Assembly: GCA_040755995.1 (NCBI GenBank)
Contig: JBFMAF010000024.1
Coordinates: 224,001-288,000 of the forward strand
Origin: Acidobacteriota bacterium
Lineage (GTDB): Bacteria; Acidobacteriota; CAIWXX01
Reading direction: 5' to 3'
DNA length: 64,000 nt
The notes beneath the pieces were generated by a model that saw only the letters and a program-made list of their open reading frames with translations, ran no database searches and was not told the origin of the DNA. Numbering within the stretch: the first letter of the stretch is position 1; each line of letters starts with the position of its first letter. Of the stretch, positions 8,073 to 23,491 are shown one piece after another. Position numbers and translations under genes: made by a program.

Positions 8073-9059
8073 ATGCCTGCTAATCTGTCGCCCGAATACA
8101 AGGCCGCCGACGCGCGTTTCAGGCAAGCTGTGACACCCGACGAGAAGCTCGAGGCGTTGCAGGAGATGCTCGCTACCATCCCCAAGCACAAGGGCACGGA
8201 GAAGATGCAGGCGGACCTCAAGAAGCGCATCGCCCGGATGAAGCTGGAAGAGGAGCAGCGGGAGAAGCATGGCAAGCGCGGCGGGCAGTTTCGTGTGGAG
8301 AAGCAAGGGGCGGGGCAGGCCGTGCTGGTGGGCTTCCCAAACGTTGGCAAGTCGTCGCTGGTCGCGGCGATGACGAATGCGCACCCCGAGGTGGCCGACT
8401 ACCCGTTCACAACGCACCTGCCCGGTCCGGGTATCATGCCGTTCGAGAACGTGCAGCTTCAGCTGGTGGACACGCCCCCGCTGACGGAGGACATCATGGA
8501 GCCCTGGCTGCCCGATCTGGTCCGGCGCGCTGACATCGCTCTGCTGGTGGTGGACGCCGGGAGCGATGATGCACTGGAGCAGGTGGAGATGGTGCGGAAG
8601 CGATTCGCGGCGATGCACGTCGACCTCACGAGCCGCGACCCCGGCGGCACGGACAGGCAGCATCTTCATCGCCGCACCCTGCTAGTCGCGAACAAGTCGG
8701 ATGCGGCCGGCGCGGAGGATCGGTTGGAGATTCTGCGCGAGATGTGCGGCGCCGAATTCACGATCCTTACGGTCTCGGCAAAGACGGGCCACGGCCTGGA
8801 GGACTTCCGGCGAAGCGTCTGGGAATTCATGGAAAAGATCCGCGTCTACACGAAGGTGCCGGGCAAGAAAGCGGACAAGGGCCAGCCATACGTGCTGCAG
8901 CGAGGCAGCACGGTTCTGGATCTCGCGTCTTCGATTCACAAGGACTTCGTGGCCGGCCTGAAGTCCGCGCGCATCTGGGGATCGGGCAGCCACGACGGCC
9001 AGCAAGTCTCCCGCGACCACGTCCTGAGCGAGGGGGACATCGTGGAACTGCACCTCTGA
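8073..9059 (+). CDS. OBG-family DRG-like GTPase with C-terminal TGS domain
   Basis: PKHKGTEK N-terminal motif, GFPNVGKS, YPFTT, DTPP, NKSD, VSA, TGS (RVYTK..IHKDF..ARIWG..HVL.EGDIVE). Confidence 0.9.
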   Translation: MPANLSPEYKAADARFRQAVTPDEKLEALQEMLATIPKHKGTEKMQADLKKRIARMKLEEEQREKHGKRGGQFRVEKQGAGQAVLVGFPNVGKSSLVAAMTNAHPEVADYPFTTHLPGPGIMPFENVQLQLVDTPPLTEDIMEPWLPDLVRRADIALLVVDAGSDDALEQVEMVRKRFAAMHVDLTSRDPGGTDRQHLHRRTLLVANKSDAAGAEDRLEILREMCGAEFTILTVSAKTGHGLEDFRRSVWEFMEKIRVYTKVPGKKADKGQPYVLQRGSTVLDLASSIHKDFVAGLKSARIWGSGSHDGQQVSRDHVLSEGDIVELHL

Positions 9060-9100: not shown

Positions 9101-9919
9101 TCATTGGGAGCTCACGGCGTCACGCGATTGCACGTCTGCGATCGAATCCAGCGGAGCCTGAGCGCGAGCGACCAATAGCTCCTCCAGTCTCAGCGCGGAT
9201 GGGTATTGATCGAGATGAAGACCCTGTGCGAGGAATCGTTCGAACCCGCCGCCGGCCTTCTCGGGCTCACCGCTGCATTTTTCACTCACACTGTCCAGCA
9301 CCCACCTCAGCACCGAAACGGCCTGTTCGGGTTCCTGTGCCAGGCCCAGCTCTCCGATCATTGCGCCCAGGGCATCGAGCGCCTCGAGCTTGACCTGCCC
9401 GGGTCCCATCGCGGCGAGGAAGCTCGTGAGTCCGATCAGGAGATCCCTGAAGTCCTCCAGCACCTGTCCGAACCATCCGTGCTCTCGCCACTCCACACGG
9501 TCCACCGTCTCGAACCAGGCACGGAATGATCGAGCCGGCAGGACCAACGGTTGCACCCTGGCCTGGTCGGTGCTCATCCCCGCTGCAATGTCGGTGGCCT
9601 TGAACAGGAGACGGCTCCAGAGGTTCGCATAGAACTGCTGCATCGGCGGTCCGAAGATGCAGCGCAGGAGGAACTCCCGGTCAGGCGACATCTTGATCCC
9701 CGTGTAGATTGCCTGGACCAGCGACTCGAGGACCGCCGCGCGACTGCCAGCGTCGCGAGAGCGTTCGACGGCCTGGAGCAGGTGCTGGATCGCTTCCTGG
9801 ATCGGACGCATCTCCGCCGGAAGCTCCAGGAACCAGCTAATACCATCCCTGACGCCCTGCACGTCGCCGGCAGAGGCGGCCGTCATGAGATCCCGCGGTG
9901 TCAGCATGAGTGTCGTCAT
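9101..9919 (-). CDS. Hypothetical all-helical protein (272 aa), preceded by the shared promoter motif
   Basis: GGAGGAGG RBS before ATG 9919, amphipathic helical pattern, no domain recognised. Confidence 0.65.
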   Translation of the reverse strand: MTTLMLTPRDLMTAASAGDVQGVRDGISWFLELPAEMRPIQEAIQHLLQAVERSRDAGSRAAVLESLVQAIYTGIKMSPDREFLLRCIFGPPMQQFYANLWSRLLFKATDIAAGMSTDQARVQPLVLPARSFRAWFETVDRVEWREHGWFGQVLEDFRDLLIGLTSFLAAMGPGQVKLEALDALGAMIGELGLAQEPEQAVSVLRWVLDSVSEKCSGEPEKAGGGFERFLAQGLHLDQYPSALRLEELLVARAQAPLDSIADVQSRDAVSSQ

Positions 9920-9978
9920 CGCAAGTCCTCCTCCAGAGGGCGAACCCGTTCGACCTGAGGGCGCCCTCATAATAGGTA

Positions 9979-10005
9979 GATTTGGCGAACAGGCCACATC
10001 TTGCG
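9979..10005 (-). promoter_or_regulatory. Putative ECF promoter motif, copy 1
   Basis: Plus strand gatttggcgaacaggccacatcttgcg; 60 nt upstream of ATG 9919; A-tract upstream on minus strand. Confidence 0.7.
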
Positions 10006-10215
10006 TCCTCTGGCGAAAATTTTTTTCAGGCACCGGGCTCTGATCCGAGGGGTCCGTCACTCACCAGGCGGGAGGCGCTGGACACTGACACACGGAGACG
10101 CGGAGAGGAGGACCGGCTTCGCCTTCGCCTTGCCGCCACTTGAATTCCGGCCGCCCGCCTGCTAAGAATAATGCACGTCCCGGGTTCGTTTCGCTGGCGC
10201 CGATAACTGGGGGGG

Positions 10216-13200
10216 ATGATCGCGATGGAGGAGGGCTGCTCTCGCTCTGCACCCCCACACCGCCGGGCGAGGGCTCGGGTGCCTACCCAGGTGTGCTGTG
10301 GATCGGCCTTGTTGGCTGTGCTCGGTTCGCAGTCCGCCGATCTCTCGTCTCGGGCGCCCCGCGCCATTCATGTTGGAGAGACGCTTGAGGCGGAGATCGC
10401 GGACCCAGAACACGCCCGCCTCCGGCCTTCTTTGGGCCCAGGGCACCGGTTCATTTTCGACGGCAGGGCAGGGCAGAGGCTGACCATCGGCGTGGAGTCA
10501 TTCGAGTTCGATTCGTATCTGATTCTTTTCGACCCGGCAGGCCGCGAGATCGCATTCAGCGATGACAGCGCCGGTTTCTCCAACGCGTGCATTCGGAGGC
10601 AGCTCCCCGCGGACGGCGAGTATCTGCTTGTCGTCTGCGGCGCGACCGCTGATCACCTCGGGACGTACTGGCTCACGGTACGAGAACGCGATCACGAGCC
10701 GGATTACAGTGAGCGGGCAGCGACTGCGTACTACCGTCGAGGACTGGCATGGGCATCAAGCCGCGGGAGCCGGCGCGCCGAGAGCTTCCTCAATCTGGTC
10801 ATGGGCAGGTACTATCGCGAGCGCGGGCGCTGGGGGCAGGCGGAGGACTGCTATGCCCGGAGTCGCGCCGCGGCCCAGACAGCCGATCTTGAGGTCGCGT
10901 TGTGCGCGGCCGCAATCGAACGCGGCAGGCTGATGACTCAGCGCATGCGCTATGACGCGGCCATCCGGGAGTTGCTGCGCGCACTAAGGCTGAGCGCCTC
11001 GCTGCGCGCGGCTGAAGACGCGCAGGCACAGGCCTACGCGCAGATAGGTGACATTTATCGGTCCATCGGTCGCTCCCCCGTTGCTTCCGTCTGGTACCGC
11101 AAAGCCGCAGAAGCGACATCTCCCGACGGCCCGGCTTCGACCCGAGCCAGGGTTTATTCGTCCCTGTTCAAGTCATCACTTACATCCGACAGGGACGAAG
11201 CATTCGGGTATGCGAAGTCGTGCCTTGCGATGCGAGATGCAGTTGATCCCGTGCAGCGTGTCACGATCACCGCCGATTGGGCGCGTGTGGAAGGCGCGAG
11301 GGGGCAGCCAGAGGAAGCCCTCAGATTGGCCGAAGAGGTGTGTCGCGCAGCGCGTTCGCTCGGCTGCCGGGACATCGAGATCTCCGCGCTCTCACTTGAG
11401 AGCCTGATCGCTTGGTCTCTGCGCGACATGGATGGGACCATCAAGGCCGCCCGATCCGCCGCCGCCCTAGCTCGGCCGGAAGACGAAGATTCCGGGTCCC
11501 TTCGCGTCGCGCTCCAGATGCAAGCGAGCGGCGAGATGCTCCGGGGCGACTACCAGGCGGCCCTTGCGTCGTGCCTTAAGGCGCTCCCACTAGTGGAGCG
11601 AGGCTGGGAACGTGAGCCCGTTCCTGAAGTGCGGCAGGGCTATGCGTCGCAGACGAGGGGGCTTTGCACCCAAATCATAAGATGTCTGGCCGCTCTGAAT
11701 GCACAGGAGCCGAAGACGGGACATGCTCGCATGGCCTTTGATTTCGCTGAGCGCACCAGATGCCGGTCGTTGCTCGAGGAATTGCACCGTGACGAGTTCG
11801 AGCGTCAGGGGATGCGCGCAGCGCTCGAAGCTGAACAGACGCCACTGATGGTGCGCCTGTCCGCCCTCAGCCGTCAGCTCGCAGTCGCTCGTAGTGACGA
11901 TATGAGCGATCAGGGATTGCTGGACCGGCTGGAGGAAGATCGCGCGAGGCTCGTGGCGCAGCGTATGCTTTTGGAGGCGAGATGGAATGGGCACAGTACT
12001 TGCGAGAGGGCGAATTTGCCGGTCCCGCTGACCTGTGACCAGCTACAGTCAGGCTTCCTGCGGCAGCGGCCCAATACCGCCATCCTCGTCTACCAGCTGG
12101 GCGTCAAAGAGAGCTTCCTTTTCCTTCTCAGCCGGAGCGACGTGCGCCTCCTCACTCTGCCGGACTGGAACTGCATCGGTGGGCTCGTCAGGCAATGGCG
12201 TTCCGCCATCGTCCAACAGCTTCGCTCAGATGCCGGTGACGTGCTTCAGGTGCGCCACTACGAGGATATCGCTCACAAGCTCTATGCGACATTGGTGCAG
12301 CCGGTGGCGGACCACATACGAGGAAGAGATCTGGTTTTCGTCGCCGATGGAGTCCTGCACGAATTGGCGTTCGAGAGTCTCGTCACGTCCAGAGCTGATG
12401 ATGCGAGCAGCTATGCCGGCCTTCGTTATCTGGTTGAGGACCACGCGATCACCTATGCTCCGTCCGTCACGATTCTGGTCGAGGCCGAGCGCAGGGCAAA
12501 CGTGCGGCCTCCACCCGCCAGGAATCTGCTGCTGGTGGGCGACGCGGTGTTCACACCGGATGATCCCCGCGCCGGTGTTCCCCCGTCTACGCCGTCCGTG
12601 AGCTCCAACACGGGAGCAGGCAGAAGGGCGATGGCACTTCGTGCCGGCATCGGGAGGCTGCCGGCAACACGTCAAGAGGTCCTGGGCATCTCGGAGCTGG
12701 CCGAGAAGAGCAGTTGGCATTCGACACTCTGGATGGGATTCGACGCGGCGGAAGGAAGGCTCAAGACCACGCGGCTGTCGCAATTCCGCATCGTGCACTT
12801 CGCGACTCATGCAACCGCAGACCCAGTGGACGGCGAGTTCTCGGGCATCCTCCTTTCGTATGATCGCGACTCCTCGGACGAGGACGGGCTCCTTTCCGCT
12901 GCTGAGGTGAGAAGCCTGGATCTCGATGCCGAACTTGTCGTGCTCAGCGGCTGTTCCACGGCCGCGGGCCAGCGGACAGGCGCTGAGGGAGTAATTGGGC
13001 TGAGTCGCGAGTTCATGATCGCCGGGGCTGAGCGCGTGTGCGCATCGCTTTGGGATGTCGAAGACGGGTCCACACAGCGGCTAATGGGCACCCTATATGG
13101 ACACCTCCTCTCCAGAGGCGACCCCCCGGGTTTCGCGTTGCGGCAGGTGAAGATCGAACTCCTGTCCGCTGGTCTCTCACCCAGTCGCTGGGCCGCCTTC

Positions 13201-13221
13201 GTCTTGGCGGGAGCGCTGTAG
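10216..13221 (+). CDS. PPC-domain/TPR/CHAT caspase-like protease
   Basis: PPC-like domain (FDGRAGQRLTI..FDSYLILFDP.G..IAFSDD), TPR-like helices, AFDFAERTRCRSL, CHAT motifs DGVLHELAF, HFATHA (His), VLSGCST (Cys), SLWDV, WAAF. Confidence 0.93.
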   Translation: MIAMEEGCSRSAPPHRRARARVPTQVCCGSALLAVLGSQSADLSSRAPRAIHVGETLEAEIADPEHARLRPSLGPGHRFIFDGRAGQRLTIGVESFEFDSYLILFDPAGREIAFSDDSAGFSNACIRRQLPADGEYLLVVCGATADHLGTYWLTVRERDHEPDYSERAATAYYRRGLAWASSRGSRRAESFLNLVMGRYYRERGRWGQAEDCYARSRAAAQTADLEVALCAAAIERGRLMTQRMRYDAAIRELLRALRLSASLRAAEDAQAQAYAQIGDIYRSIGRSPVASVWYRKAAEATSPDGPASTRARVYSSLFKSSLTSDRDEAFGYAKSCLAMRDAVDPVQRVTITADWARVEGARGQPEEALRLAEEVCRAARSLGCRDIEISALSLESLIAWSLRDMDGTIKAARSAAALARPEDEDSGSLRVALQMQASGEMLRGDYQAALASCLKALPLVERGWEREPVPEVRQGYASQTRGLCTQIIRCLAALNAQEPKTGHARMAFDFAERTRCRSLLEELHRDEFERQGMRAALEAEQTPLMVRLSALSRQLAVARSDDMSDQGLLDRLEEDRARLVAQRMLLEARWNGHSTCERANLPVPLTCDQLQSGFLRQRPNTAILVYQLGVKESFLFLLSRSDVRLLTLPDWNCIGGLVRQWRSAIVQQLRSDAGDVLQVRHYEDIAHKLYATLVQPVADHIRGRDLVFVADGVLHELAFESLVTSRADDASSYAGLRYLVEDHAITYAPSVTILVEAERRANVRPPPARNLLLVGDAVFTPDDPRAGVPPSTPSVSSNTGAGRRAMALRAGIGRLPATRQEVLGISELAEKSSWHSTLWMGFDAAEGRLKTTRLSQFRIVHFATHATADPVDGEFSGILLSYDRDSSDEDGLLSAAEVRSLDLDAELVVLSGCSTAAGQRTGAEGVIGLSREFMIAGAERVCASLWDVEDGSTQRLMGTLYGHLLSRGDPPGFALRQVKIELLSAGLSPSRWAAFVLAGAL

Positions 13222-13277
13222 ACGCCTGCGGCGACACAGCCTCCACTCGATGCCGTCTCGGTTGATCACCGGTCGCG

Positions 13278-13466
13278 TCAGGGCTTGCTGGGACTACAGC
13301 AGTCCGCCCCGAACAGACAACAATCGTCGTCCAGCGTCATGGGTGGGTTGATTGTGCGCACTCCCGCTTGGTTGTGCTGCAAGGGGCTTGGTGACGGCGT
13401 CCACGCTGGCGAAGCCAGCAGAAGTGTACCCAGCAGTCCCAGAATGATCCATCGTACTACCGACAT
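13278..13466 (-). CDS. Small secreted cysteine-rich peptide (62 aa)
   Basis: AAGGAGGA RBS before ATG 13466; signal peptide MSVVRWIILGLLGTLLLASPA; C-terminus DDDCCLFGADCCSPSKP; shared promoter motif upstream. Confidence 0.75.
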   Translation of the reverse strand: MSVVRWIILGLLGTLLLASPAWTPSPSPLQHNQAGVRTINPPMTLDDDCCLFGADCCSPSKP

Positions 13467-13579
13467 GGTTTCCTCCTTGTTGAATGAATGCCGTTGACCG
13501 ATCGCCTCGGCCGGCGGCGGTTGTGTTGTTTGACCGTGTTCCACCTGTAACCGTTGTTCATGTCCCTTCACCAAAGGAT

Positions 13580-13606
13580 GATTTGGCGAGAAGGGCACAT
13601 CTTGCG
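13580..13606 (-). promoter_or_regulatory. Putative ECF promoter motif, copy 2
   Basis: Plus strand gatttggcgagaagggcacatcttgcg, 24/27 identical to copy 1; A-tract upstream on minus strand. Confidence 0.72.
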
Positions 13607-13663
13607 TGCGGAGCATAGTTTTTTTTCCAAGGCGTCGCGCGGGTGCTGGCGACCTCACAACGT

Positions 13664-13813
13664 CTGCCGCTGAAGGGCACTCTCCGAGTGCTGCTCGATG
13701 GCAAGGAAGCAGACCTGATCGAGGAAGTGAAGCCGCTTCGGGACCGCCTCCACGAGCTCCGATCCCGCATCGCGCCGCACAGTCGCACCACCGTCCTGGA
13801 TCTGGCCGGCGAG
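13664..13813 (+). pseudogene. Remnant of DUF3368-type PIN-domain gene (C-terminal fragment)
   Basis: GTLRVLLDGKEADLIEEVKPLRDRL..SRIAP..VLDLAGE resembles the DUF3368 C-terminal pattern GTLGVLL.AK..GLI..VKP.LD.L..AGE; N-terminal part absent. Confidence 0.6.
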
Positions 13814-13934
13814 CCTGTAGCCGGGTCAGTGCGGGCCGCTTCGCGACCACCACACCAGCGGGCCGCCGTCCGCTGTTTCGGGGTTACGGCTGCGGACGAG
13901 GATGATGGATGGACTTGCTCCGGGCCGATCTCGC

Positions 13935-13962
13935 TGATATCATAATGGAGAGTATGATATCA
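13935..13962. promoter_or_regulatory. Perfect inverted repeat, probable TA operator
   Basis: TGATATCATA-N8-TATGATATCA, 23 nt before the antitoxin ATG. Confidence 0.75.
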
Positions 13963-13985
13963 AGGACACGGGGGAGGCAACTGGG

Positions 13986-14225
13986 ATGCGCACGATCATC
14001 ACTCTCGCGCCGGAAGACAAGGCGTGGCTCGACCGGGTGGCACGACAGCGTCACGTCCCGATGACTCGGATCGTCGCCCAGGCAGTCAAGGAGCTTCGAC
14101 GTGAATGGAGCTTTCTCGATCAGGATTTCGACCAGATACTTGACGAGACACGCGGCATCTGGAAACGAGCTGGCGGATTGACCTACCAGCGAATGCGCCG
14201 GGCCGAATGGGACAGGCGACAATGA
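13986..14225 (+). CDS. Ribbon-helix-helix (CopG-like) antitoxin, VapB-type
   Basis: MRTIITLAPEDKAWLDRVARQRHVPMTRIVAQAV; ATGA overlap with PIN toxin. Confidence 0.85.
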   Translation: MRTIITLAPEDKAWLDRVARQRHVPMTRIVAQAVKELRREWSFLDQDFDQILDETRGIWKRAGGLTYQRMRRAEWDRRQ

Positions 14226-14590
14226 GGCTGCTGCTCGATTCAGTGATCGTCATCGACCACTTCAACGGAGTCTCGAATGCTACAGCGTACCTCGCTGCCG
14301 TGCGAACGGAGGCTGCCGTGTCGGTGATAACTCGAGCGGAGGTCCTGGCGGGGCTCGATGACCTCGCTGCAGTCAAGGCCCAGCGTCTCCTCGACTGCTT
14401 CCCCACGCTGCCCATCGACAGAGAGGCGGCAGACCTCGCTGCGAGTCTCCGGCGCAGCCACCACTGGAGGCTCCCCGACGCATTTCAGGCTGCGCTCGCG
14501 CTCAGACACGGGCTCCTCCTCGTGACCCGGAACACGAAGGACTTCCCGCCTTCCAAGCACCGCTTCGTCCTCGTGCCGTATCGACTGTAG
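14222..14590 (+). CDS. vapC: PIN-domain toxin, VapC family
   Basis: LLDSVIVID, SVITRAEVL.G, LPDAFQAA.A, LVTRNTKDF. Confidence 0.92.
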   Translation: MRLLLDSVIVIDHFNGVSNATAYLAAVRTEAAVSVITRAEVLAGLDDLAAVKAQRLLDCFPTLPIDREAADLAASLRRSHHWRLPDAFQAALALRHGLLLVTRNTKDFPPSKHRFVLVPYRL

Positions 14591-17500
14591 GTGTCCGGAG
14601 GATGCCCGCTCCGATCCAGCGAGCAGGAGCGTGGTCGCGCACGCAGCGGGTACCGCAGACGGGGCACGGAGGTGTGGACGCGGTCGTCGGCTGCCTGGAC
14701 CCGCCATGCACGTCCTCGCAGTTGTGCGACATCTCATTCTCGCCCCGGGCGCCGGTCACGACTCTGACTATGCTGAAGGTCGCGTCGCTTTCGTCCCACG
14801 GATCCTTGTCCAGGTCGCTCACTCGTGTGAGACAGTTCGTAGATGTCGGAGTCACGACCGGCCACTGGCAACTTCCCGTGTTGACGATTCCCGCCTTGAT
14901 CCGGCTCCAACTCTGCCCGTTGTTCCGAGAAATGTCAACGTTCACATTCCGCACGTTGCCGCCGGTCGTCCAGGCGATCGTTGCCGTCGTTCCCACCTTG
15001 AGCTGCTCGCCTCCGTTCGGCGATGTCACCGTGATGCTCGGCCGGATCGAGAACGGCTCCTTCGTCTCGCCGCAGAACTTCATGTTCGCAGCATCGCTCA
15101 CCCGCAGATAGCACTCCGCGGCCTCCGGCTCCGTCACGATCCAACTCAGGCTTCCCTCGTTCGTGTAGGTCGTGTTCTTCGGGTCGATGTGCTTCCAGTC
15201 GCCGCCATCCCGCTTGATCTGTATCTTCACGTTCTTCGGCGTCCCGGACGGGCTCCACTTGATCGTGTAGCTCTTCCCGTTCCTCAGCACATCGCCGCCC
15301 ACCGGCTTCTTGATCGTGAAGCCGTCGTTGATCGGGAACTTCGCATCGGAGGTGTCGGCTGTGACACCGCCGGCGTCTTTGATCTCGATCAGGCATTCGG
15401 TCGACGCTGGGCCCGTGACCGGCCATGGCAGCTCGCCGCTATTGGGCACCGATTCGCGCCCCGGATGCAACGACTCCGAGTAAGGCGCCTTCCCGGTGCG
15501 GCTCAGCGAGACCTTCACGTTCTGAATCCGAGTCATGTCGCCGGGGTTCCACTTGATGGTCTGCTTCGTCCCGATCGTTAGCCCGTCGTTCTTCCCATTC
15601 GGCCATTCCACCTTGATCACCATCTGCTGCGGCACGATCGAGAATGGCTTGCTCATGGCCGACGGATCGGCGTCCCCTGGATCTTGGATACGGACGCGCC
15701 AGCCGTCCCCAGAAAGGCCCTCGGGCACCGGCGGCACCTCGCACAGATAGTGCCCGCTGTTCTCGCAGGATGGCACGACTTCGATCGTCTCCAGATCGTG
15801 GTCGGGCAGGTTCTTGATGAGGTCGATCCTCACGTGTTGGCACAGCGACACGCTCGTGGCCACCCACTCGATCCTGTACTTGTTGCCGACACCAAGCAGC
15901 TCTCCTCCTTCGGGTCTGGTCACTCTCAGAGTCGCTGGCGCGGCCACGATGCGGAAGTGCTCGTCGCTCTCGTCCTTCACGCCAGCCGTGATCTCCTCCA
16001 CGCGGATCCGGTACGCGTTGCCCGGCGCGTCGTCAACAATCCACCGGCAGGAAGTCACATAGCCCTTCTCTGCAATGGGCCGCACGCGCTCCGGGCTGCT
16101 AGAGTCGTCCACAAGAGAGATCCTCAGTCCCTTGCCGCTCGCGAAGTGTCCGGTCAGCTCCCAGCTGATCATCACCTCGGTGCCCGCCTGAAATGTCTGC
16201 CGTTCCAGCTCGGTGTTGTGTGGGGGCACCCTGCCGCCGTTGGGATAGAGGACCTTGATGGCTCGATTCGACGGCTCGATCGTGAACGTGCCATCGCTCA
16301 GATCCTGTGTGTCTTCATTCCCGGTGTGAATCCGTATCAGGCACTGCTCGGATGGCGCGTTCGGCACGCTCCACTTGAACGACTTGCTCTTCGGATCGAG
16401 CGCGTTGGCTCCGTCCACCGCCTTCCAGTTGGTCCCGTTGTCTGTGGAGTACTTGATCGCCATCGTCTGCGTGCCGAAGTCACCATCGGCGATCCACACG
16501 ATGTTGTGCTCGGTGAGCGCTTCCCAGTGCTCACCGCCGTTCGGCTCACGCACGGTGAGCTTCTTCTGGACGATCGAGAACGGCGCATCGCTCGTGTCTT
16601 CCTCGGGCCCGGCCGTGTTGCTGATGCGGATGTAGCATCTCCCGGCGGCGGTGTCGGCAGTCCACTTGCACTGGCGTGCGGCCGCGTCGAAGGATGACTT
16701 GATGACCTTGATCTGAGTCGCGTTGCCCACCGAGATGAGCAGCTCGATACGCACCGTGGCGATGTTCGACGTGGCTCGCCACTTGATGGTGGTGGACTTC
16801 CCCACGATAAGCGCTTCGCCTCCGTTGGGGTACTCCACCACGATCTCGCCGGTCACAACGGTGCCCTGCGGAGACCTGTCCGTCTTGAGACGCATCCCGC
16901 GATCGTCGTAGAGGTAGCTCGCAAGGAGCGGCAGCTCTGCCGTGCCCGCGTCCGGTGTCGTGTCGCCGTCCATCTCGGCCAGCAAGCTCGACATGTCGCT
17001 GCCCGCCTCCGCATTCATCTTCCGCACCTCCGCGAGGCGGTTCTGATTGTCCCAGACATACTGGTAGACGCCGTCGGACTTGAGATTGCCGCGGCCGTCA
17101 TAGGGCAGGCCGATGATCTGGTTCTTCCCGTTGAAGGTCTGCACCAAGGGCGAGCTCGTGCCCTCGGTGATCTGCCGGGCATTTCCCAGTCCGTCATACT
17201 GGTAGGCGATCGACGGCACTCGGCCGGCGCTGTTCGGAGTGTACTCCACCTTGGTCAGCCGGTTCAGGTCGTCGTACTCGAAGGTCGCGTCGAGCTGGGG
17301 ATTGGTGTCGGTGATCGACGTGATGTTGTAGTTGCCGTCATAGCCGTATACAGCGCGATAGAGGTTCTTCGTGGAATTTGCGAGCCGGGCACTGCCCAGG
17401 TGACCTGTCTTGAGGTAGGCGGCGGTGAACGTGGTCCCGTTGGCGAACCCGATGCTGGTCGGCTGCTTGTAGTCCGCATAAAGCGCAGAGTCGACGATGC

Positions 17501-19298
17501 GCGCGCCGTTGCGCCTCACGCTGTCCGGGGCGTCGAAGCCGGTATTCGTGTACGTGATCCTCTGGCCATCCGGGTAGACGACTGCGCTGAGGTTGTTGCT
17601 GGCATCATGCTCGTACGCCAGCGTCTTTGCAGACATTCCCGGGATAGTGAGCGTCTCATGCTCGACAGACCCCAGCGGATTGTACGAGATGCCGGTCCGC
17701 TTCCACCCCTTCGTCGCGCTCTCGACCGAGCGGAGCGTCCCGTCGCCCGGGTCGTAGCCATAGTTCAGGTCATCGTCCCCGGAATTCAGGGTCTTGAGCT
17801 GGTTGAAAGTGTTGTAGCCGTAGTTGATTGCGGTGGTCGCCCAGACCTTCCGTTCGAGGTTGCCCGTGGTGGGGCTGTACGTGTAGCTGATCGTCCCGGT
17901 TTCCGGGTGGCTCTCGCTGGTGACATTGTCCATGCCGTCGTGGGAGTACCTCTGGGTCCGGCCGCCGCTGAGGTCGGCCCGCAGAAGCCGCCCGATGTCG
18001 TCATAGTAGTACGCCGTGGAGACGCCATTCGGTTCGGTGGTGAGCGTGATGCGGCCGGGCAGGCCGTCGTACCGGTATTTCCAATGCTTGCCGTTCGCGT
18101 CTGTCACATCCTTGAGGCCGTTCTCGAGACTCACGATCGTGGTCTTGTTCCGGGGGTCCGTGGTCTGCACAACGTCGCCGGCTTGATTGTAGATATAGCT
18201 GTAGACGTCCAGCGGGTCGGTGCTGCCCCTGGATTCCGCAACCACCCGGCCCTCCTTGTCCAGCTCCTTCCTGTACTGGAGCGTGGTGCCGGTCTTGAGG
18301 TCTTTCTCCGTGTGCCCAAGGGCGCGCCCGAGACCATCCCAGTACTTGACGATCTGCTTCTGCTCCTGAGTGACGGTTGCGCTTCTGCCGTTCTCGGCCC
18401 ATCGCACCGTGATGTTGGCGAACTGCCCGGGCATAGTGACGTCGGTCACGCGGCCCAGGTTGTCGTAGGAGAAGCCCATCGTCCCGCCGTGCTGATTGGT
18501 TTCCGTCAGAATCGAGCTGTCGTGCGGGCTGATGGTTCTACTGAATACGGTGAACCCATCCTGCCATTTCAGAAGCGACTGCACTCCGTGGTCGTACTTC
18601 GCGATCTGTTTGCCGGCGGAGCCCGGGAGGTCCGTCGTGATCGTGATCAGTGCCGGATTCGCCAGCTGGTTCTCGTAGCCCCAGGTAAGCCAGTTCCCTG
18701 ACCCCACCCACCGCTCGACCTGCGTGACGGCGCCCGTTGGGAAGTCGTACGTCGACTTCGTCTCCTTGAGCTTCCCCGACGATCCGGTCGTCGTCTGGTT
18801 ACTGACGTATGAGAGCATGTAGCTGTCTTTGAACCTCTGGTCGCTCTCGAATGCGTAGCTGTATGTGTCTGTGTAGCTGGCCGCGTGGGGGCCCGTGCCG
18901 CTCGAGTGCGTGATCGATGTGGGGAGCCCGCGCTCGTACGGCCCGGTGCGGTCGTAATAGTATGCGTCGATCGTGGTCTGAGCCGGAAGCGTTGTGCGCT
19001 TCACGCTCCTTCTGAGAGGAACCCATATGGGCGCACACTCGTTGAGATGATTGATATCGCCGATCACGTACCTCTGCCAGCCGTACCACTCATGATAGCT
19101 CGTGTCCCCGTACCACTTCTCCGTGATCACAGGGTCCAGCGTGACGTCGCCGGGCAGACCGTATTTGGCGTAGGCCTTCTGTGTGGCCGGTCCGGTCACA
19201 ACTACCGTGTCATCTCCTGCCAGGTTGAATCCTGGATACTCGTAGCTCCATTCCGCGGTCTCGCCCTCGCCATCGACGATGGCCCTCCGCCATACCAC
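14502..19298 (-). CDS. YD/RHS-repeat protein with seven C-terminal PNGGE Ig-like repeats; apparently lacks N-terminus and RHS core end (frame open to 19697)
   Basis: Many YD-type repeats (YDNLGRV, YDDIGRL, YDDLNRL, YDGRGNL, YDDRGMR) then 7 ~95-aa units starting P(N)GGE-like and ending SD..F(S/T)I-like; GTG 19298 after GGGGA is a tentative start. Confidence 0.85.
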   Translation of the reverse strand: MVWRRAIVDGEGETAEWSYEYPGFNLAGDDTVVVTGPATQKAYAKYGLPGDVTLDPVITEKWYGDTSYHEWYGWQRYVIGDINHLNECAPIWVPLRRSVKRTTLPAQTTIDAYYYDRTGPYERGLPTSITHSSGTGPHAASYTDTYSYAFESDQRFKDSYMLSYVSNQTTTGSSGKLKETKSTYDFPTGAVTQVERWVGSGNWLTWGYENQLANPALITITTDLPGSAGKQIAKYDHGVQSLLKWQDGFTVFSRTISPHDSSILTETNQHGGTMGFSYDNLGRVTDVTMPGQFANITVRWAENGRSATVTQEQKQIVKYWDGLGRALGHTEKDLKTGTTLQYRKELDKEGRVVAESRGSTDPLDVYSYIYNQAGDVVQTTDPRNKTTIVSLENGLKDVTDANGKHWKYRYDGLPGRITLTTEPNGVSTAYYYDDIGRLLRADLSGGRTQRYSHDGMDNVTSESHPETGTISYTYSPTTGNLERKVWATTAINYGYNTFNQLKTLNSGDDDLNYGYDPGDGTLRSVESATKGWKRTGISYNPLGSVEHETLTIPGMSAKTLAYEHDASNNLSAVVYPDGQRITYTNTGFDAPDSVRRNGARIVDSALYADYKQPTSIGFANGTTFTAAYLKTGHLGSARLANSTKNLYRAVYGYDGNYNITSITDTNPQLDATFEYDDLNRLTKVEYTPNSAGRVPSIAYQYDGLGNARQITEGTSSPLVQTFNGKNQIIGLPYDGRGNLKSDGVYQYVWDNQNRLAEVRKMNAEAGSDMSSLLAEMDGDTTPDAGTAELPLLASYLYDDRGMRLKTDRSPQGTVVTGEIVVEYPNGGEALIVGKSTTIKWRATSNIATVRIELLISVGNATQIKVIKSSFDAAARQCKWTADTAAGRCYIRISNTAGPEEDTSDAPFSIVQKKLTVREPNGGEHWEALTEHNIVWIADGDFGTQTMAIKYSTDNGTNWKAVDGANALDPKSKSFKWSVPNAPSEQCLIRIHTGNEDTQDLSDGTFTIEPSNRAIKVLYPNGGRVPPHNTELERQTFQAGTEVMISWELTGHFASGKGLRISLVDDSSSPERVRPIAEKGYVTSCRWIVDDAPGNAYRIRVEEITAGVKDESDEHFRIVAAPATLRVTRPEGGELLGVGNKYRIEWVATSVSLCQHVRIDLIKNLPDHDLETIEVVPSCENSGHYLCEVPPVPEGLSGDGWRVRIQDPGDADPSAMSKPFSIVPQQMVIKVEWPNGKNDGLTIGTKQTIKWNPGDMTRIQNVKVSLSRTGKAPYSESLHPGRESVPNSGELPWPVTGPASTECLIEIKDAGGVTADTSDAKFPINDGFTIKKPVGGDVLRNGKSYTIKWSPSGTPKNVKIQIKRDGGDWKHIDPKNTTYTNEGSLSWIVTEPEAAECYLRVSDAANMKFCGETKEPFSIRPSITVTSPNGGEQLKVGTTATIAWTTGGNVRNVNVDISRNNGQSWSRIKAGIVNTGSCQWPVVTPTSTNCLTRVSDLDKDPWDESDATFSIVRVVTGARGENEMSHNCEDVHGGSRQPTTASTPPCPVCGTRCVRDHAPARWIGAGILRTPTVDTARGRSGAWKAGSPSCSGSRGGARV

Positions 19299-20215
19299 GC
19301 GCGATCCCCATGGTCCGCTCTTACCACCGCGGTGAGCTCCGCGCGCTCGGGGCTCATCGCCACAATCGACAACAAGCACGCGACGCCGTCGAAATGCTCC
19401 TCCGGGTGGAACCTGAACGAAAGCCTCCCAGGCGCCGACTGTCTCACCGAATACGGCCCGGCCGTGGCTCCGGGCTCCGCGCTTGCGATGGCCAGCACAC
19501 GGTCGTCGTAGATCACATCGAACGACCCATACGACGGCCACACGCGCGCAGCGACGATCACACGCACGGAGAACTCCTCGCCTGCGGCCGTCTGGATCTT
19601 GCGCGGATCGAAGGCAACCGCCGCTCGCGCTGGAAGAACGTTTTGTACACTCGGCGCCGCGGTCGTCGGGACTGAAGGGGCCGGTGGGCTCGCACATCTC
19701 CGCTCCTCTGCGAGCACCGCTCCAGCACGCCCTCCGGCCGGCGCACCACCGCCAGCGACGGCCTCGAGTGGCTCCTCCATCGCTCGCAAGCGGATGGCGG
19801 CAATCTGGCGCTTCAAGAGGCCATGATCGTTGAAGGGATCCGTGCGGACGGCTTGCGCATACGCCTGGTATGCAGCCGCAAGCTGCTCCGAGCGCTCCAG
19901 CTCTTCGCCGCGCGCAATCAGAGCCTCCGCTCGCTGGGCGATGGCGGAAGCCAGAGCGGCCGAGTACTTCGGATCGCCTGGATCATGCTTCAGAGCTTCC
20001 TGCAGATACCCGATTGCATCCTCGTGCTGTTCAGCACGTTGCGCTCGCATCCCACTGTTGTAAGCACGCGACGCCGCGCACCCCGCGCTCGCGAGGAGCG
20101 CGAGTATCGTCAGCATGCACAAGCGGATACGGCGTCTTCTGGCAGATCCACCCGTGCCGCTGGGCCTCGCCGCGGACCTTTCGGCTCTCCCTACCCCTTC
20201 TGTCACCTCAGTCAC
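19202..20215 (-). CDS. Lipoprotein with TPR N-terminus and cohesin-like C-terminal domain
   Basis: Lipobox ILALLASAGC, TPR-like helices (AIGYLQEALKHDP; AYAQAVRTDP), Pro/Ala linker, cohesin-like strands (GEEFSVRV..FDVIYDDRVL); GTG 20215 after GAGGGG. Confidence 0.7.
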   Translation of the reverse strand: MTEVTEGVGRAERSAARPSGTGGSARRRRIRLCMLTILALLASAGCAASRAYNSGMRAQRAEQHEDAIGYLQEALKHDPGDPKYSAALASAIAQRAEALIARGEELERSEQLAAAYQAYAQAVRTDPFNDHGLLKRQIAAIRLRAMEEPLEAVAGGGAPAGGRAGAVLAEERRCASPPAPSVPTTAAPSVQNVLPARAAVAFDPRKIQTAAGEEFSVRVIVAARVWPSYGSFDVIYDDRVLAIASAEPGATAGPYSVRQSAPGRLSFRFHPEEHFDGVACLLSIVAMSPERAELTAVVRADHGDRAWYGGGPSSMARARPRNGATSIQDSTWQEMTR

Positions 20216-20233
20216 ATGTCCCCTCATATATAT

Positions 20234-20260
20234 AGTTTCGCGAGAAGGCCAATTCTCGCC
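20234..20260 (-). promoter_or_regulatory. Putative ECF promoter motif, copy 3 (degenerate)
   Basis: Plus strand agtttcgcgagaaggccaattctcgcc, 19/27 identical to copy 2; just upstream of the lipoprotein/RHS unit. Confidence 0.5.
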
Positions 20261-20854
20261 GGAGAAACAAAAAGAACTTTCCTGAGCAGAATCTGCAGCC
20301 GAAATTTGGCCCAGGGAATGGGCGCGCTTGTGGGAGGAAACGCCGGACTGTGCACTACCACTTGGCGCTAAGTTATGCATGACTATCATCTCCATCGCAC
20401 ACGATACAATATAGTACTTGTGGAGACCTTTGTCAAATGCGATAAAGGCGCCCCGCGCAAGTTAGCACCATAGGGCGTATCGGCCTTTCGCTCCGCTGGT
20501 CGTGGGGGCTAATTCATAAATTAGGTTGCCAGCGGGCAACGACAACCATATACAACACTGTAGGTTCATTGTGGCTACCAATCATTCGGACGCTAGCCAT
20601 CTTCTCCTCCTGCAGGAATACGCGCAAAATACTACAACGCAGTCCGAGAACCTGTGACACGAATCACACGGGAAGGCGTCTGCGACCCACATTCATGGCC
20701 CTCGCGACGGCCCCCGATGATGGGGTTTCGCATCCGCGGTAGGGCGGCTCCCCGTGTCGACCCAGCGCAGATACTCCGGAGTCTACTCCTGATGCCGCGT
20801 GAGAAGATCGCTGAGGTACTGGTGCGAGTTCGCTGAATTCGGCAAGCAGTGCCT

Positions 20855-21649
20855 TCAGCTCGTCGATCGTTCGATTATCGCCTTCAGTCTCTCCGCCTGC
20901 CTCCGTAGCTCGCCGTTCGAATCGATGATCTTGCGGAGCTCGTCGAGTGCAGCATCGGGCTTGTTCGCGCCCAGGTATGCCAACGCCAGATAGTATCGAG
21001 CGCGTTCGAGAGACATTCCGGCGCTCGTTTCTGCGGCACGCTTCAACGGCCCAATTGCATCCGCGGCCTGACCCATGAGCACAAGAGAGACGCCCTGGTA
21101 GAAGTGCGCCTCAGCGTTCTCCGGGTCCAGCCTGGCTGTCACCTCCAGCTGTTTCGACGCGGACGCGTAGTCTTGTTTCAGGTACGAGGCCATGCCTTCA
21201 TCGAATGCCTCCCAGCCGCCGGCACCACGAAGCACTGGGCGGCTTGCTGGAGGTACATAGGCCGCCTTGGGCACGACCATCCCGGTCCAGAGCCTGGTCT
21301 CAGATCCTGATCCGCGGCCTGACAAGACGAAGTATGCTGTCACCGCCCCGCCGGCGACCAACAGAACGGAGGCTGCCAGTAGCGCCGCCCGCCCGCGCCA
21401 GGCCCATGCTGGCGGCATCCTTTGCGGCAGATCGACGGCTGGAATCTGCTCTGCCCGCGCTGCGCCGCGTAGCACGGCCTGGCGATGATTTCGCAGGGTC
21501 GCCATATGGGGGGCCATCGCGAACACCTCTTCGTGACAGTACGCGCATTCCCACATGTGATCGACGAAGGCCTCGCGCTCACCCTCGTCCAGCATGCCCA
21601 GCTCATAGCGGGTTATCAGCCGACCGACTGCAGGGTCAGTACATTTCAT
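20855..21649 (-). CDS. Zinc-finger (ZAS) anti-sigma factor with TM helix and extracytoplasmic TPR domain
   Basis: HxxxCxxC (HMWECAYC), TM segment ALLAASVLLVAGGAVTAYFVL, TPRs (AHFYQGVSL; ARYYLALAYL); downstream of ECF sigma. Confidence 0.88.
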   Translation of the reverse strand: MKCTDPAVGRLITRYELGMLDEGEREAFVDHMWECAYCHEEVFAMAPHMATLRNHRQAVLRGAARAEQIPAVDLPQRMPPAWAWRGRAALLAASVLLVAGGAVTAYFVLSGRGSGSETRLWTGMVVPKAAYVPPASRPVLRGAGGWEAFDEGMASYLKQDYASASKQLEVTARLDPENAEAHFYQGVSLVLMGQAADAIGPLKRAAETSAGMSLERARYYLALAYLGANKPDAALDELRKIIDSNGELRRQAERLKAIIERSTS

Positions 21650-21726
21650 AGGTCACTCCCTTCCTCTGGATCGAGAACCGCGATCTGTGCTGAAACGGCC
21701 TCTGCTCGGTCCCGGCACTATCGTCA

Positions 21727-22281
21727 TCATTGCGGCCTCCCAGAGAGTATCTCCCGCAGCGCCTTGCGGCACCGAAGCAGCCATTCGTCAACGCGGGCTC
21801 TCGGGGCCCCCAGACTCTCAGCCAGCTCCCGCACGCTCACCCCCTCGCATATTGCGAGAAGCAGCGCCCGGCACCGAGGCCTGCTCTCGCCCAGAAGCTC
21901 GATGGCGCGCCGGACTGCGGGGTACATCAGCGCGGCCTCGATCTGGGGCTCCTGCGACCTGCCCCGGTCAACGGACTCTGGATCGCCAGAATGCAGCTCC
22001 ACCTGTCGCCTCTTCCTTTGCCTCTCATAGTAGTAGTAATTGCCTATGATGTTTCGGAGCACAGCATCGGTATACTCCAGCAGCCCTTGGCGTGTCTGGA
22101 TTTCCGAGAAGTGCTCCTGGACCACCATCAATGTGTCATGTACGACGTCCTCTAAATCTCCCTCACTTACTTTAGATTTGGCGAGAAAGCGGTATCTTGC
22201 GCGCAAATACAAAAAAAGTTTCTCCCGGGCCTCCGGGTCGCCCGCCCGCGCCAGGTAGAAAAGGTCGGCGATCCTACCCAT
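21727..22281 (-). CDS. ECF RNA polymerase sigma-70 family factor
   Basis: ARAGDPEAREKLF, LEDVVHDTL, region 2 (VLRNIIGNYY), region 4 (CRALL..EGVSVRELAESLG..VDEWLLRCRKALR). Confidence 0.9.
   Translation of the reverse strand: MGRIADLFYLARAGDPEAREKLFLYLRARYRFLAKSKVSEGDLEDVVHDTLMVVQEHFSEIQTRQGLLEYTDAVLRNIIGNYYYYERQRKRRQVELHSGDPESVDRGRSQEPQIEAALMYPAVRRAIELLGESRPRCRALLLAICEGVSVRELAESLGAPRARVDEWLLRCRKALREILSGRPQ
22175..22201 (-). promoter_or_regulatory. Putative ECF promoter motif, copy 4, internal to the sigma CDS
   Basis: Plus strand gatttggcgagaaagcggtatcttgcg, 22/27 identical to copy 2 with all mismatches in the spacer; T7 tract upstream on minus strand. Confidence 0.68.
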
Positions 22282-22612
22282 CGCAAGTCTGCTCTGTGGT
22301 CATCGCGTCTGATCTACCCTCCAGCAGGCCGGGGACCAGCGACTCCAACGGCGCTCCCGGGAGGCCGCAGCGGCGGCGGCGGACGCTCTCCTGTTCACAG
22401 CATTCCTCGGGGCATGGACAACGGCCGTATTCTAGCACCACTCGCGTGCCCCTGGTCGAACGAGCCTCGCCTCCTGGTCATCCTCGCTCCGGGCTGTTGG
22501 GGCCTGCTGCGGCGCATTGACAAGTGCGGCACATCTCTGGGAATCTAGGGACTGCAGGCGCGACTGGAGGTGTCGTTTGGAATCTGCGAGGTCGGGGCCC
22601 ACGCCGGAGGAC

Positions 22613-23491
22613 ATGCAGGCCGTCTCCGCGCGCCGTGAGCTGCGCCTTGCCCTCGCCTTCATGGTCCTCATCTGGGGAGCCGGCTACACCGTCGTCAAGG
22701 TCACGCTCCTGGAAATCGCACCCGCTAACATCGCCGCTGCGCGGGTATTGATCGCAACGCTCAGTCTGTTCCTGGTGCTCCGCGCGTCGGGCCGCAACGC
22801 CCGACTCGATATCCGCGCGGTCCCTATGATGGTGCTTCTCGGCTTCACGGGTGTCGCAGCAAACCAGCTTCTGTTCGTCGTCGGGCTGAACCTCACGGTC
22901 CCCTCTCATTCCTCGCTCGTCATCGCCACCGGTCCGGTCTGGGTGCTCCTGCTGGCGGTGGTGTTCCTGGACGAGCGGATCGGGCCGCAGAAGATCGCCG
23001 GCATCGTCCTGTCGTTCGCAGGGGTCGCCGCGCTCACCGTCCACTCCGACTTCAGCTTCGACCCGCATTATCTCGCAGGCGATCTCATCACCATGAGCGG
23101 CTCGTTCTCATTCGCGATCTTCACCGTCATCGGCAGGAAGACTGTACAGCGCTACGGAGTCCTGAAGTCCACGGCGTACTCGCATCTCTGCGGTGCACTG
23201 CTGCTTCTGCCCTTCGCCCTCATCATCCGGACTCCGAACCCGCGCCCCCTCACGGGTGTGGGCCTCTTCGGAGTGCTCTACCTCGCCATCCTCTCCTCCA
23301 CCGTCGCCTACCTCATCTTCAACCGCGGGCTGCGCGACCTTGGAGCCAGCAGCGTCGCGATCCTTAACTACTTCCAACCGCTCCTCGCGATCCTGATCTC
23401 GATCGCACTCGGCCAGGAGCCTCTCACGGCTCAGGTTTTCGCCGGCGGCGCCATGATCCTGGCCGGGATCTTTCTGGCGGAACGAGCCTGA
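22613..23491 (+). CDS. DMT/EamA family transporter
   Basis: Two EamA repeats, ~10 TM helices, IWG..; GGAGG RBS before ATG 22613. Confidence 0.92.
   Translation: MQAVSARRELRLALAFMVLIWGAGYTVVKVTLLEIAPANIAAARVLIATLSLFLVLRASGRNARLDIRAVPMMVLLGFTGVAANQLLFVVGLNLTVPSHSSLVIATGPVWVLLLAVVFLDERIGPQKIAGIVLSFAGVAALTVHSDFSFDPHYLAGDLITMSGSFSFAIFTVIGRKTVQRYGVLKSTAYSHLCGALLLLPFALIIRTPNPRPLTGVGLFGVLYLAILSSTVAYLIFNRGLRDLGASSVAILNYFQPLLAILISIALGQEPLTAQVFAGGAMILAGIFLAERA

Follow-up and report, generated by a model that had tools for sequence, protein, structure and literature searches.

Sigma factors that stand beside a protease or a CHAT protein have been described in several bacterial systems, which differ in their build. 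In Myxococcus xanthus, DdvA joins a cytoplasmic CHCC zinc-binding domain, a single transmembrane (TM) segment and a periplasmic TPR-CHAT part in one protein (PMC11506125); the promoters of DdvS have the form GTAA-n16-CGT (PMC6061681), and fused proteins of the DdvA kind are reported from Myxococcota and a single Comamonas alone (PMC11506125, PMC6061681). In the type III-E craspase, the TPR-CHAT protease Csx29 relieves the inhibition of a sigma factor resembling the extracytoplasmic function (ECF) type by cutting Csx30 (PMC10028731), and in E. coli the sigma-E response uses regulated intramembrane proteolysis of the RseA/DegS/RseP type (PMC10028731, PMC11506125). The group ECF54 is found in Actinobacteria only, has no anti-sigma factor, has TPR/CHAT proteins and subtilases in its gene context, and has the predicted promoter GTATCAG / CTCC (Casas-Pastor 2021, PMC7826278). 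Here we analyse a gene block of an Acidobacteriota bacterium (genome G000, 7.7 Mb, 63% G+C), which lies in a stretch of 64,000 nt called the window in the following (G000:C24:224001-288000) between a GTPase gene (8073-9059) and an EamA transporter gene (22517-23491), and which encodes an ECF sigma factor, a zinc-binding anti-sigma factor (ZAS), a TPR-CHAT protease and a small secreted peptide. With moderate confidence, about evenly balanced, we regard the block as a copy of a conserved four-gene envelope signalling module that would work as a split form of DdvS/DdvA, turning an outside signal into gene expression by cutting of the anti-sigma factor. No published description of this split sigma/anti-sigma/CHAT form was found in full-text searches of the literature.

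A previous sequence-only reading of the block had named the genes for the sigma factor, the anti-sigma factor, the CHAT protease, an orphan protein, the peptide and a lipoprotein/RHS unit, and all of them are present. Its overall interpretation is supported in part: the co-occurrence of the genes, the independence from CRISPR and the promoter-like motif stand, while the analogue, the scope of the motif, the nature of the outputs and the role of the peptide have to be drawn anew.

The four genes and their linkage

The genes on which the argument is built are the following.

21727..22281, minus strand: ECF sigma factor, 184 aa (TIGR02937, PF07638)
20855..21649, minus strand: anti-sigma factor, 264 aa, with a CHCC zinc finger, a TM segment and three TPRs, 78 nt 3' of the sigma gene
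10216..13221, plus strand: TPR-CHAT protease, 1001 aa (PF12770, E 9.6e-60)
13278..13466, minus strand: secreted peptide precursor, 62 aa, with a signal peptide, a variable linker and the C-terminal DDCCLFGADCC

The window sigma factor is a member of the ECF (group 4) sigma-70 family, matching TIGR02937 with 57.1 bits (cut-off 42.9; residues 17-179 on profile positions 1-165) and PF07638 with 24.9 bits (cut-off 21.1). No ECF subfamily model is matched at or above its cut-off, and the model CAS_III-E_sigma (NF041236) gives 20.5 bits with a cut-off of 100. The adjoining gene encodes a ZAS of class I, as its product has the N-terminal zinc motif H31-x3-C35-x2-C38, and C3, H31, C35 and C38 are invariant in 11/11 relatives; the models zf-HC2 (19 bits, cut-off 22.2) and NF052375, an anti-sigma model, are matched below their cut-offs. 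A hydrophobic stretch at residues 88-109 makes the single TM segment, the C-terminal TPR domain takes about 110 residues, and the juxtamembrane periplasmic linker PKAxYxP...VLR is conserved.

The CHAT protein had been described as a protease with both catalytic residues, and in fact the dyad of His865 and Cys913 is intact and invariant in 11/11 relatives, with the Cys region aligning with the catalytic Cys of separase. An N-terminal hydrophobic signal or anchor is seen in 15/15 CHAT partners, namely in the window and in 14 related loci. The predicted structure (pLDDT 80.9, pTM 0.79) consists of an N-terminal hydrophobic helix, a beta-sandwich (56-157), a TPR superhelix (166-593) and the CHAT domain (621-999); the PPC domain named before is matched only weakly by its profile PF04151 (17.9 bits, cut-off 25.9), but the model does have this beta-sandwich. 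The best fold matches of the model in the PDB (Foldseek) are Csx29 (E 2.3e-14), DdvA (8rw5, E 6.4e-14, 16% identity; 8rot_A, E 1.6e-12) and separases; a phmmer search of the CHAT and anti-sigma proteins against PDB sequences returned separase and generic TPRs only, the likeness to DdvA in sequence being too low for this method.

It had been proposed that homologues of the three proteins would occur together in other genomes, and this is what we find. With the anti-sigma factor and CHAT as queries against 41 genomes, the full-length best matches of the two adjoin each other at G000:C36, G001:C287, G001:C43 and G002:C49, and CHAT matches occur in 25 of the genomes, one of them in G025, a genome that no other result here draws on. 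Pfam searches of 31 neighbouring open reading frames (ORFs) show that each of the four places has a sigma factor, a ZAS/TPR anti-sigma factor and CHAT, often accompanied by a hybrid PAS kinase, and contig C36 of G000 thereby holds a second full gene set. Moreover, a scan of species-representative genomes with an alignment of the sigma factors gave 22 loci, three of which are the places already known in G001 and G002; by profile searches of the locus ORFs, an anti-sigma-like gene adjoins the sigma gene in 19/22 of them and CHAT lies within 10 kb in 14/22. Most often the genes follow one another as sigma>anti-sigma>CHAT on the same strand, separated by less than 100 nt or overlapping by 4 nt. 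The relatives belong to Acidobacteriota (mostly Blastocatellia), Zixibacteria and Ignavibacteria, and the 14 CHAT-bearing loci include two from Zixibacteria, two from Ignavibacteria and one from an unclassified bacterium, while the eight without CHAT comprise one at a contig end, five with more distant Acidobacteriota sigma factors and two actinobacterial chance relatives. The pairwise identities of CHAT and anti-sigma proteins are correlated (r 0.74 over 55 pairs, which are non-independent owing to kinship).

The fourth member is the peptide. Using a script that takes small ORFs ending in CC-x(4-6)-CC, a peptide gene of 58-77 aa was found convergent to the 3' end of CHAT in 10/11 close loci; the eleventh (L028 in G042) has a longer ORF with DCCVAGAPCC after a copy of the promoter-like motif treated below, and a twelfth CHAT-linked peptide occurs at G041:C42. 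The family is built of a signal peptide, a variable linker and the consensus DWCCxAGLxCC, with the four Cys of CC-x5-CC invariant in 30/30 aligned members. A profile search of 1.84 billion representatives gives 50 proteins of the family at E <=0.001, 49 of them of 53-79 aa and one of 146 aa; for 8 of the clusters the names were looked up, and they have none or are called 'hypothetical protein'. With at least 50 sequence clusters, these small secreted products of soil Acidobacteriota form a class that is still unexplored. The peptide had been taken for an output of the circuit, which is right insofar as its gene carries the motif, but it is not merely an output, being a conserved member of the module by its convergence with CHAT; we predict it to be the ligand, inhibitor or substrate of CHAT. 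In the window, CHAT and the peptide gene are inverted and lie 8 kb from the sigma/anti-sigma pair, and the peptide gene remains beside CHAT in spite of this separation. Judged by sequence, the window block is a rearranged copy of the conserved four-gene set of sigma factor, anti-sigma factor, CHAT and peptide.

A promoter-like element and the genes behind it

One 27-bp motif had been reported upstream of three minus-strand units, those of the orphan protein, the peptide and the lipoprotein/RHS genes. For the first two this holds exactly: a degenerate 26-mer has 3 exact matches in the window against 0.04 expected, a number reached by 0/100 shuffles, and they lie 5' of the orphan gene, 5' of the peptide gene and, at a place that had escaped notice, inside the sigma ORF (22175-22200). 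The copy before the lipoprotein/RHS unit (20236-20259), however, is a distinct variant with 79% identity over 24 nt. Together with their surroundings, the copies form elements of two subtypes, A and B, for which the nhmmer E-values are given.

22155..22225, minus strand: type A element in sigma codons ~19-43, with -35-like GAGAAAC, 16 nt, -10-like CGCAAGAT and a leader-like block (E 1.6e-9)
20214..20284, minus strand: type B element GGAAAG-N16-GGCGAGAA...CTCGCGAAAC..., abutting the ATG of the lipoprotein gene (E 2.8e-8)
13560..13630, minus strand: type A element 5' of the peptide gene, the best nhmmer match of the genome (E 7.5e-12)
9959..10029, minus strand: type A element 5' of the orphan gene (E 8.1e-10)

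Nor is the motif confined to the block. Genome-wide, a profile built from 13 copies gives 17 sites (nhmmer, E 7.5e-12 to 0.044) and one more in locus L009 at a weak E of 1.7, altogether about 18 copies, of which 11 are of type A (GCAAGAT...CTCGCCAAATC) and 7 of type B (GCGAGAA...CTCGCGAAAC), and all sites in the genome face a downstream gene. G000 encodes exactly two sigma factors of the window's subfamily, on C24 (the window) and C36, and each of these paralogous genes holds one internal copy, type A in the window sigma and type B in the C36 sigma; the lipoprotein/RHS unit, since it carries type B, would therefore answer to the C36 sigma.

An alignment of 26 copies from six genomes shows, in this order, an A-rich (G/C)AAA(C/A), a T-rich spacer of 16 nt, a box (C/G)GC(A/G)AGA and a stretch CCTTCTCGC(C/G)AAA(T/C), followed by GAGGG near the start codon; in 19/26 copies a spacer of exactly 16 nt separates AA[ACG] from the (C/G)GC(A/G)AG box. 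This arrangement agrees with an ECF promoter of the form GAAAC-N16-CGCAAGA to which a conserved leader is joined; the promoter of sigma-W is TGAAAC-N16-CGTA. With this ECF-like geometry, the motif noticed at first would be the -10 element together with a conserved initial transcribed leader. The proposal that it marks the promoters of a candidate regulon is supported in that the element behaves like a sigma-dependent promoter in its ECF-type spacing and in its subtypes, which match the two sigma factors, and we take it as a candidate promoter of this sigma subfamily. A strict pattern search with the sigma-internal 32-mer of each genome matched only that copy itself, and a sequence-only model then gave further copies.

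Several other explanations of the element were tried. A conserved RNA structure was rejected (RNAalifold gives 0 pairs on the 26 copies), as was a hairpin between leader and Shine-Dalgarno sequence, with a pairing of 62.8% against 61.1% in shuffles (117/500). A programmed frameshift by T-tract and hairpin is rejected too, for the slippery frame differs between the paralogs and is meaningless for intergenic copies. A housekeeping sigma-70 reading (TTGGCC-17-TnnAGT + GGGA) is not favoured, as the -10-like hexamer has no A at position 2 and the sites are not called by a consensus scan. The element as 5' fragments of dead duplicates of the sigma gene was rejected because the motif cores are conserved while the flanks are not. 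A palindrome for a dimeric regulator, whose repeat is imperfect and uncompensated in type A, was kept only as a minor rival, to which we return below.

The copy within the sigma gene merits attention of its own. The N-terminal region of the sigma factor is truly coding, since it is conserved as protein in five homologues and lies within the coverage of the ECF model. Codons 21-43 use AGA, TTA, AGT, TCT, GTA, AAA and TTT, each rare among 1532 long ORFs of G000 (for example AGA 0.058, TTA 0.003 and AGT 0.056), and the G+C content at third codon positions is 0.33-0.47 at the element against 0.72 in the whole gene. Sigma orthologs with the embedded element occur in 7 other genomes, among them G001, G002, G041 and G042 as well as two of Zixibacteria, and no copy of the motif was seen upstream of any sigma gene examined. 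Moreover, the copies vary together locally. At G001:C287 the sigma-internal copy and a copy after CHAT are identical over 32 nt; at G041:C42 the internal variant of a second sigma gene, GGGAGATTT...GGCGAAAT, recurs with small differences before a CC-x5-CC peptide gene, before an AraC-like-looking gene and on another contig. Behind CHAT, L009 and L010 have divergent pairs of the motif, one arm of which is directed at the peptide gene; altogether, peptide genes with the element are found in the window, L009, L010, G041:C42 and G042. We infer from these sequences that the sigma-internal copy is a sigma-dependent promoter giving transcripts of the anti-sigma gene, and in canonical operons of CHAT, without full-length sigma. 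A promoter embedded in the coding sequence of its sigma gene, and kept across phyla at the cost of rare codons, would be an unusual design of feedback. In G041, another Blastocatellia genome, the two small proteins that the local element variant precedes in L061 (G041:C42:40639) and L063 (C68:4281) resemble, by sequence alone, AraC-type helix-turn-helix regulators.

The genes behind the copies in G000 give a picture of the candidate regulon. They comprise four hybrid PAS/GAF histidine kinases with receiver domains, CheW with a CheR-TPR protein, an ion channel with a cadherin-like protein, both peptide genes and the orphan. Type A copies also precede two paralogous sigma-like genes (58% identical to each other, weakly similar to the window sigma), behind each of which lies the gene of a large protease, either an S8 subtilase or Nal1-like (G000:C3:104603-107554, L022; G000:C56:33523-36803, L018), and these pairs may form a second tier of sigma-plus-protease switches. 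At G000:C33:59709-60722 (L019 3710-4722), a type B and a type A copy stand in tandem about 100 nt apart, 5' of the single gene of a secreted protein (223 aa, no family), an arrangement that might let either sigma paralog drive it. Of the units of TPR-lipoprotein and RHS genes, those of the window and of C51 bear type B, and the cut end of C20 has a near-identical element; other copies of the unit have no element. Secreted or surface proteins had been expected as the outputs. Some are indeed of this kind, but in the main they are cytoplasmic signalling proteins, and with kinases, sigma-like factors and CheW/CheR as targets the outputs would mostly be further signalling proteins. If the promoter assignment is right, two orthogonal versions of the regulon are legible in the DNA and offer ready-made reporters.

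The remaining features of the block are as follows.

20408..20436, minus strand: sigma-70-like promoter TTGACA-17-TATATT with 11/12 consensus matches, ~150 nt 5' of the type B element
19202..20227, minus strand: TPR lipoprotein-like protein, 341 aa, with ...LLASAG/C
14502..19298 (start uncertain), minus strand: RHS/YD-repeat protein that ends in an array of Kre9/KNH-type Ig-like domains (RHS_repeat E 3.7e-20, Kre9_KNH E 2.3e-20, TIGR01643)
13986..14590, plus strand: overlapping genes of a vapB-like protein (79 aa) and a VapC PIN toxin (127 aa; PIN E 2.5e-13)
9101..9919, minus strand: orphan all-helical protein, 272 aa, true start 9919, of no family and in single copy in the genome

The unit of TPR-lipoprotein and RHS/Ig-repeat genes is a multi-copy family in G000 (C28:14345-20985, C31:142389-147099 and C51:75460-77721): the window RHS protein has a 67%-identical paralog on C28, and paralogs of the TPR-lipoprotein adjoin RHS paralogs on C28, C31 and C51. 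The gap of 460 nt between the anti-sigma gene and this unit contains a terminator-like hairpin (20524-20547, minus strand) and then the near-consensus sigma-70-like promoter of the list; the latter is weak evidence by itself, because 2 sites of the TTGACA-17-TATATT type are observed against 2.6 expected across the region. The vapBC-like pair, which the sequence-only reading had not mentioned, stands on the opposite strand, flanked by the peptide gene and the 3' end of the RHS gene, with no promoter-like element, and VapC models score under their cut-offs for the 127-aa PIN protein; the pair is likely outside the signalling module. For the orphan protein, the structural look-alikes in the Atlas are HEAT/ARM-like at low confidence. 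Elsewhere in the window, 36001-38000 has 70% G+C over 2 kb against 60-65% in the remaining part.

Proposed mechanism and its rivals

Putting the genes and the element together, the module could work as follows. Upon a signal, the periplasmic CHAT would cut the anti-sigma factor in the juxtamembrane linker, a step we propose by analogy with the described TPR-CHAT systems; a site-2 protease of the RseP type, for which an M50/RseP-like gene is present on C55 of G000, would then complete the cleavage and free the sigma factor. The free sigma would transcribe from promoters (G/C)AAA(C/A)-N16-CGCAAGAT, followed by the conserved leader CCTTCTCGCCAAATC and GAGGG, with the ~11 type A copies served by the window sigma and the ~7 type B copies by the C36 paralog. 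From the copy inside each sigma gene, sigma-dependent transcripts for the anti-sigma factor (and CHAT in the canonical operon) would arise without full-length sigma, which would act as negative feedback. A bolder extension, tentative and in our view rather unlikely, makes the peptide a self-made extracellular signal: the sigma factor would drive its gene, and the mature peptide would bind the TPR superhelix of CHAT and switch on, or de-inhibit, the cutting of the anti-sigma factor. Such a circuit, of peptide-signalling or quorum type, would feed an ECF sigma factor by way of a caspase-like protease, with feedback through the promoter in the sigma coding sequence and with two orthogonal sigma/promoter pairs in one genome.

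Several observations weigh against this account. As CHAT and the peptide gene of the window are inverted and 8 kb away, they need not act on the window's sigma/anti-sigma pair. The -10-like box is CGCA or GGCG and not the usual CGT, the -35-like AA[ACG] is missing at the exact spacing in 7/26 copies, and the best-conserved part of the motif, CTCGCCAAATC, would fall downstream of the predicted start, where the promoter reading does not account for it. Further, the role of the internal promoter in anti-sigma-only transcripts is read from its position alone; G043, the one Zixibacteria genome searched, has no extra copies of the motif, and none was found beside the peptide gene of G002. Finally, the script found no CC-x5-CC peptide in five distant triads (L036, L037, L039, L042 and L043).

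The same result also counts against the alternative that CHAT and the peptide are themselves outputs, which is possible if somewhat doubtful. The anti-sigma factor would then sense through its own TPR domain and be cut by other proteases, while the exported CHAT would act on the CC-x5-CC precursor, or on further proteins of the envelope, to yield a secreted product such as a signal or a bacteriocin-like peptide. That the two genes form a convergent pair in 10/11 close loci, and in the window stay together apart from the sigma/anti-sigma genes, speaks for it, as do the promoter-like elements borne by the peptide genes of the five loci named above; moreover CHAT, lying downstream of the sigma-internal element in the canonical operon, would be sigma-induced. 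But the distant triads keep CHAT while showing no such peptide, the order sigma>anti-sigma>CHAT is tight, with near-abutting or overlapping genes in three phyla, as is typical of regulators encoded with their sigma factor, and in the studied relative DdvA the TPR-CHAT part is fused to the anti-sigma factor (PMC11506125).

Doubts about the element lead to another alternative, an unlikely one, by which it is the operator of a different DNA-binding regulator, or a post-transcriptional leader, overlapping ordinary promoters, with the copy in the sigma gene as a roadblock or by-product. The core is indeed an imperfect inverted repeat GC(A/G)AGA-N8-TCTCGC, perfect with 7+7 in type B; the mismatch A3/C18 of type A is uncompensated, however, and several copies (C3, C32, C33) no longer have the repeat. 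Likewise the position of the best-conserved block downstream of the predicted -10 would suit an operator or leader, against which stand the 0 pairs of RNAalifold and a leader/Shine-Dalgarno pairing no better than in shuffles. For ordinary promoters one may point to the strong sigma-70-like site that precedes the type B copy (20214-20284) by ~150 nt, and to the stretch TnnAGT + GGGA, which resembles a -10 with discriminator, although the hexamer has no A at its second position. Also against this alternative, each subtype goes with one of the two sigma paralogs, and the variant copies change together with the sigma gene of their locus. A role as regulator of phage defence, with the RHS protein, the vapBC pair and other targets as defence or antagonism effectors induced by infection, is suggested by DdvA-DdvS, which governs a CBASS/CRISPR island and is able to confer protection from a phage (PMC11506125), and by the presence of an RHS protein and a VapC toxin within the block. 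We consider it very unlikely, as PADLOC matches 0/9 block proteins, the genes behind the motif copies are for the most part those of kinases, sigma-like factors and chemotaxis-type proteins, the vapBC genes lie on the other strand with no element, and RHS paralogs occur elsewhere, some with no element.

Relation to known systems

The split module can now be set against the systems described at the outset. With ECF54 it shares a gene context of TPR and CHAT proteins; it differs in having a ZAS anti-sigma factor, in its phyla (Acidobacteriota, Zixibacteria and Ignavibacteria) and in its motif. With the sigma-E system of E. coli there is a proposed likeness in the periplasmic site-1 cut of a single-pass anti-sigma factor followed by an M50 site-2 protease, and a second one in the internal sigma-dependent promoter of the sigma gene serving the anti-sigma gene, the sigma-E-dependent promoter of rseA lying inside rpoE. 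The site-1 protease here, however, would be a caspase-like cysteine protease with TPRs and not a PDZ serine protease.

The craspase was the model of the sequence-only reading, and the proposed logic of regulation by a TPR-CHAT protease is shared, Csx29 being the best fold match of the window CHAT. The compartment and the partners are not: the craspase works in the cytoplasm, guided by RNA and attached to Cas7-11, and its Csx30 is soluble and no ZAS, whereas here the protease is exported and the ZAS is a membrane protein. The claim of independence from CRISPR is upheld, as a PADLOC scan of 9 block proteins yielded neither a CRISPR nor a defence gene. Considering the export signal of CHAT in all partners together with the transmembrane ZAS, the right analogue would be the periplasmic DdvA/DdvS and not the cytoplasmic Csx29/Csx30.

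To DdvS/DdvA the likeness extends over several levels. In both, an ECF sigma factor adjoins a single-pass anti-sigma factor with an N-terminal CHCC domain, and a large extracytoplasmic TPR-CHAT part carries a His-Cys dyad, DdvA being the second-best fold match of the window CHAT; the promoters, here putative ones, have an A-rich -35, 16 nt and a -10 that starts with CG; and a second cut of the RseP type has been proposed for DdvA (PMC11506125), for which G000 has a candidate gene. Yet no CBASS or CRISPR system is under control here (0/9 PADLOC matches, with signalling genes as the motif targets), the candidate promoter is inside the sigma ORF instead of upstream, and a conserved secreted CC-x5-CC peptide is added. 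Above all, CHAT is here a separate exported protein of 1001 aa beside a 264-aa anti-sigma factor with only ~110 aa of TPR. In this split form the protease, its presumed substrate and the candidate peptide ligand are separate genes, each of which can be expressed, mutated or added alone.

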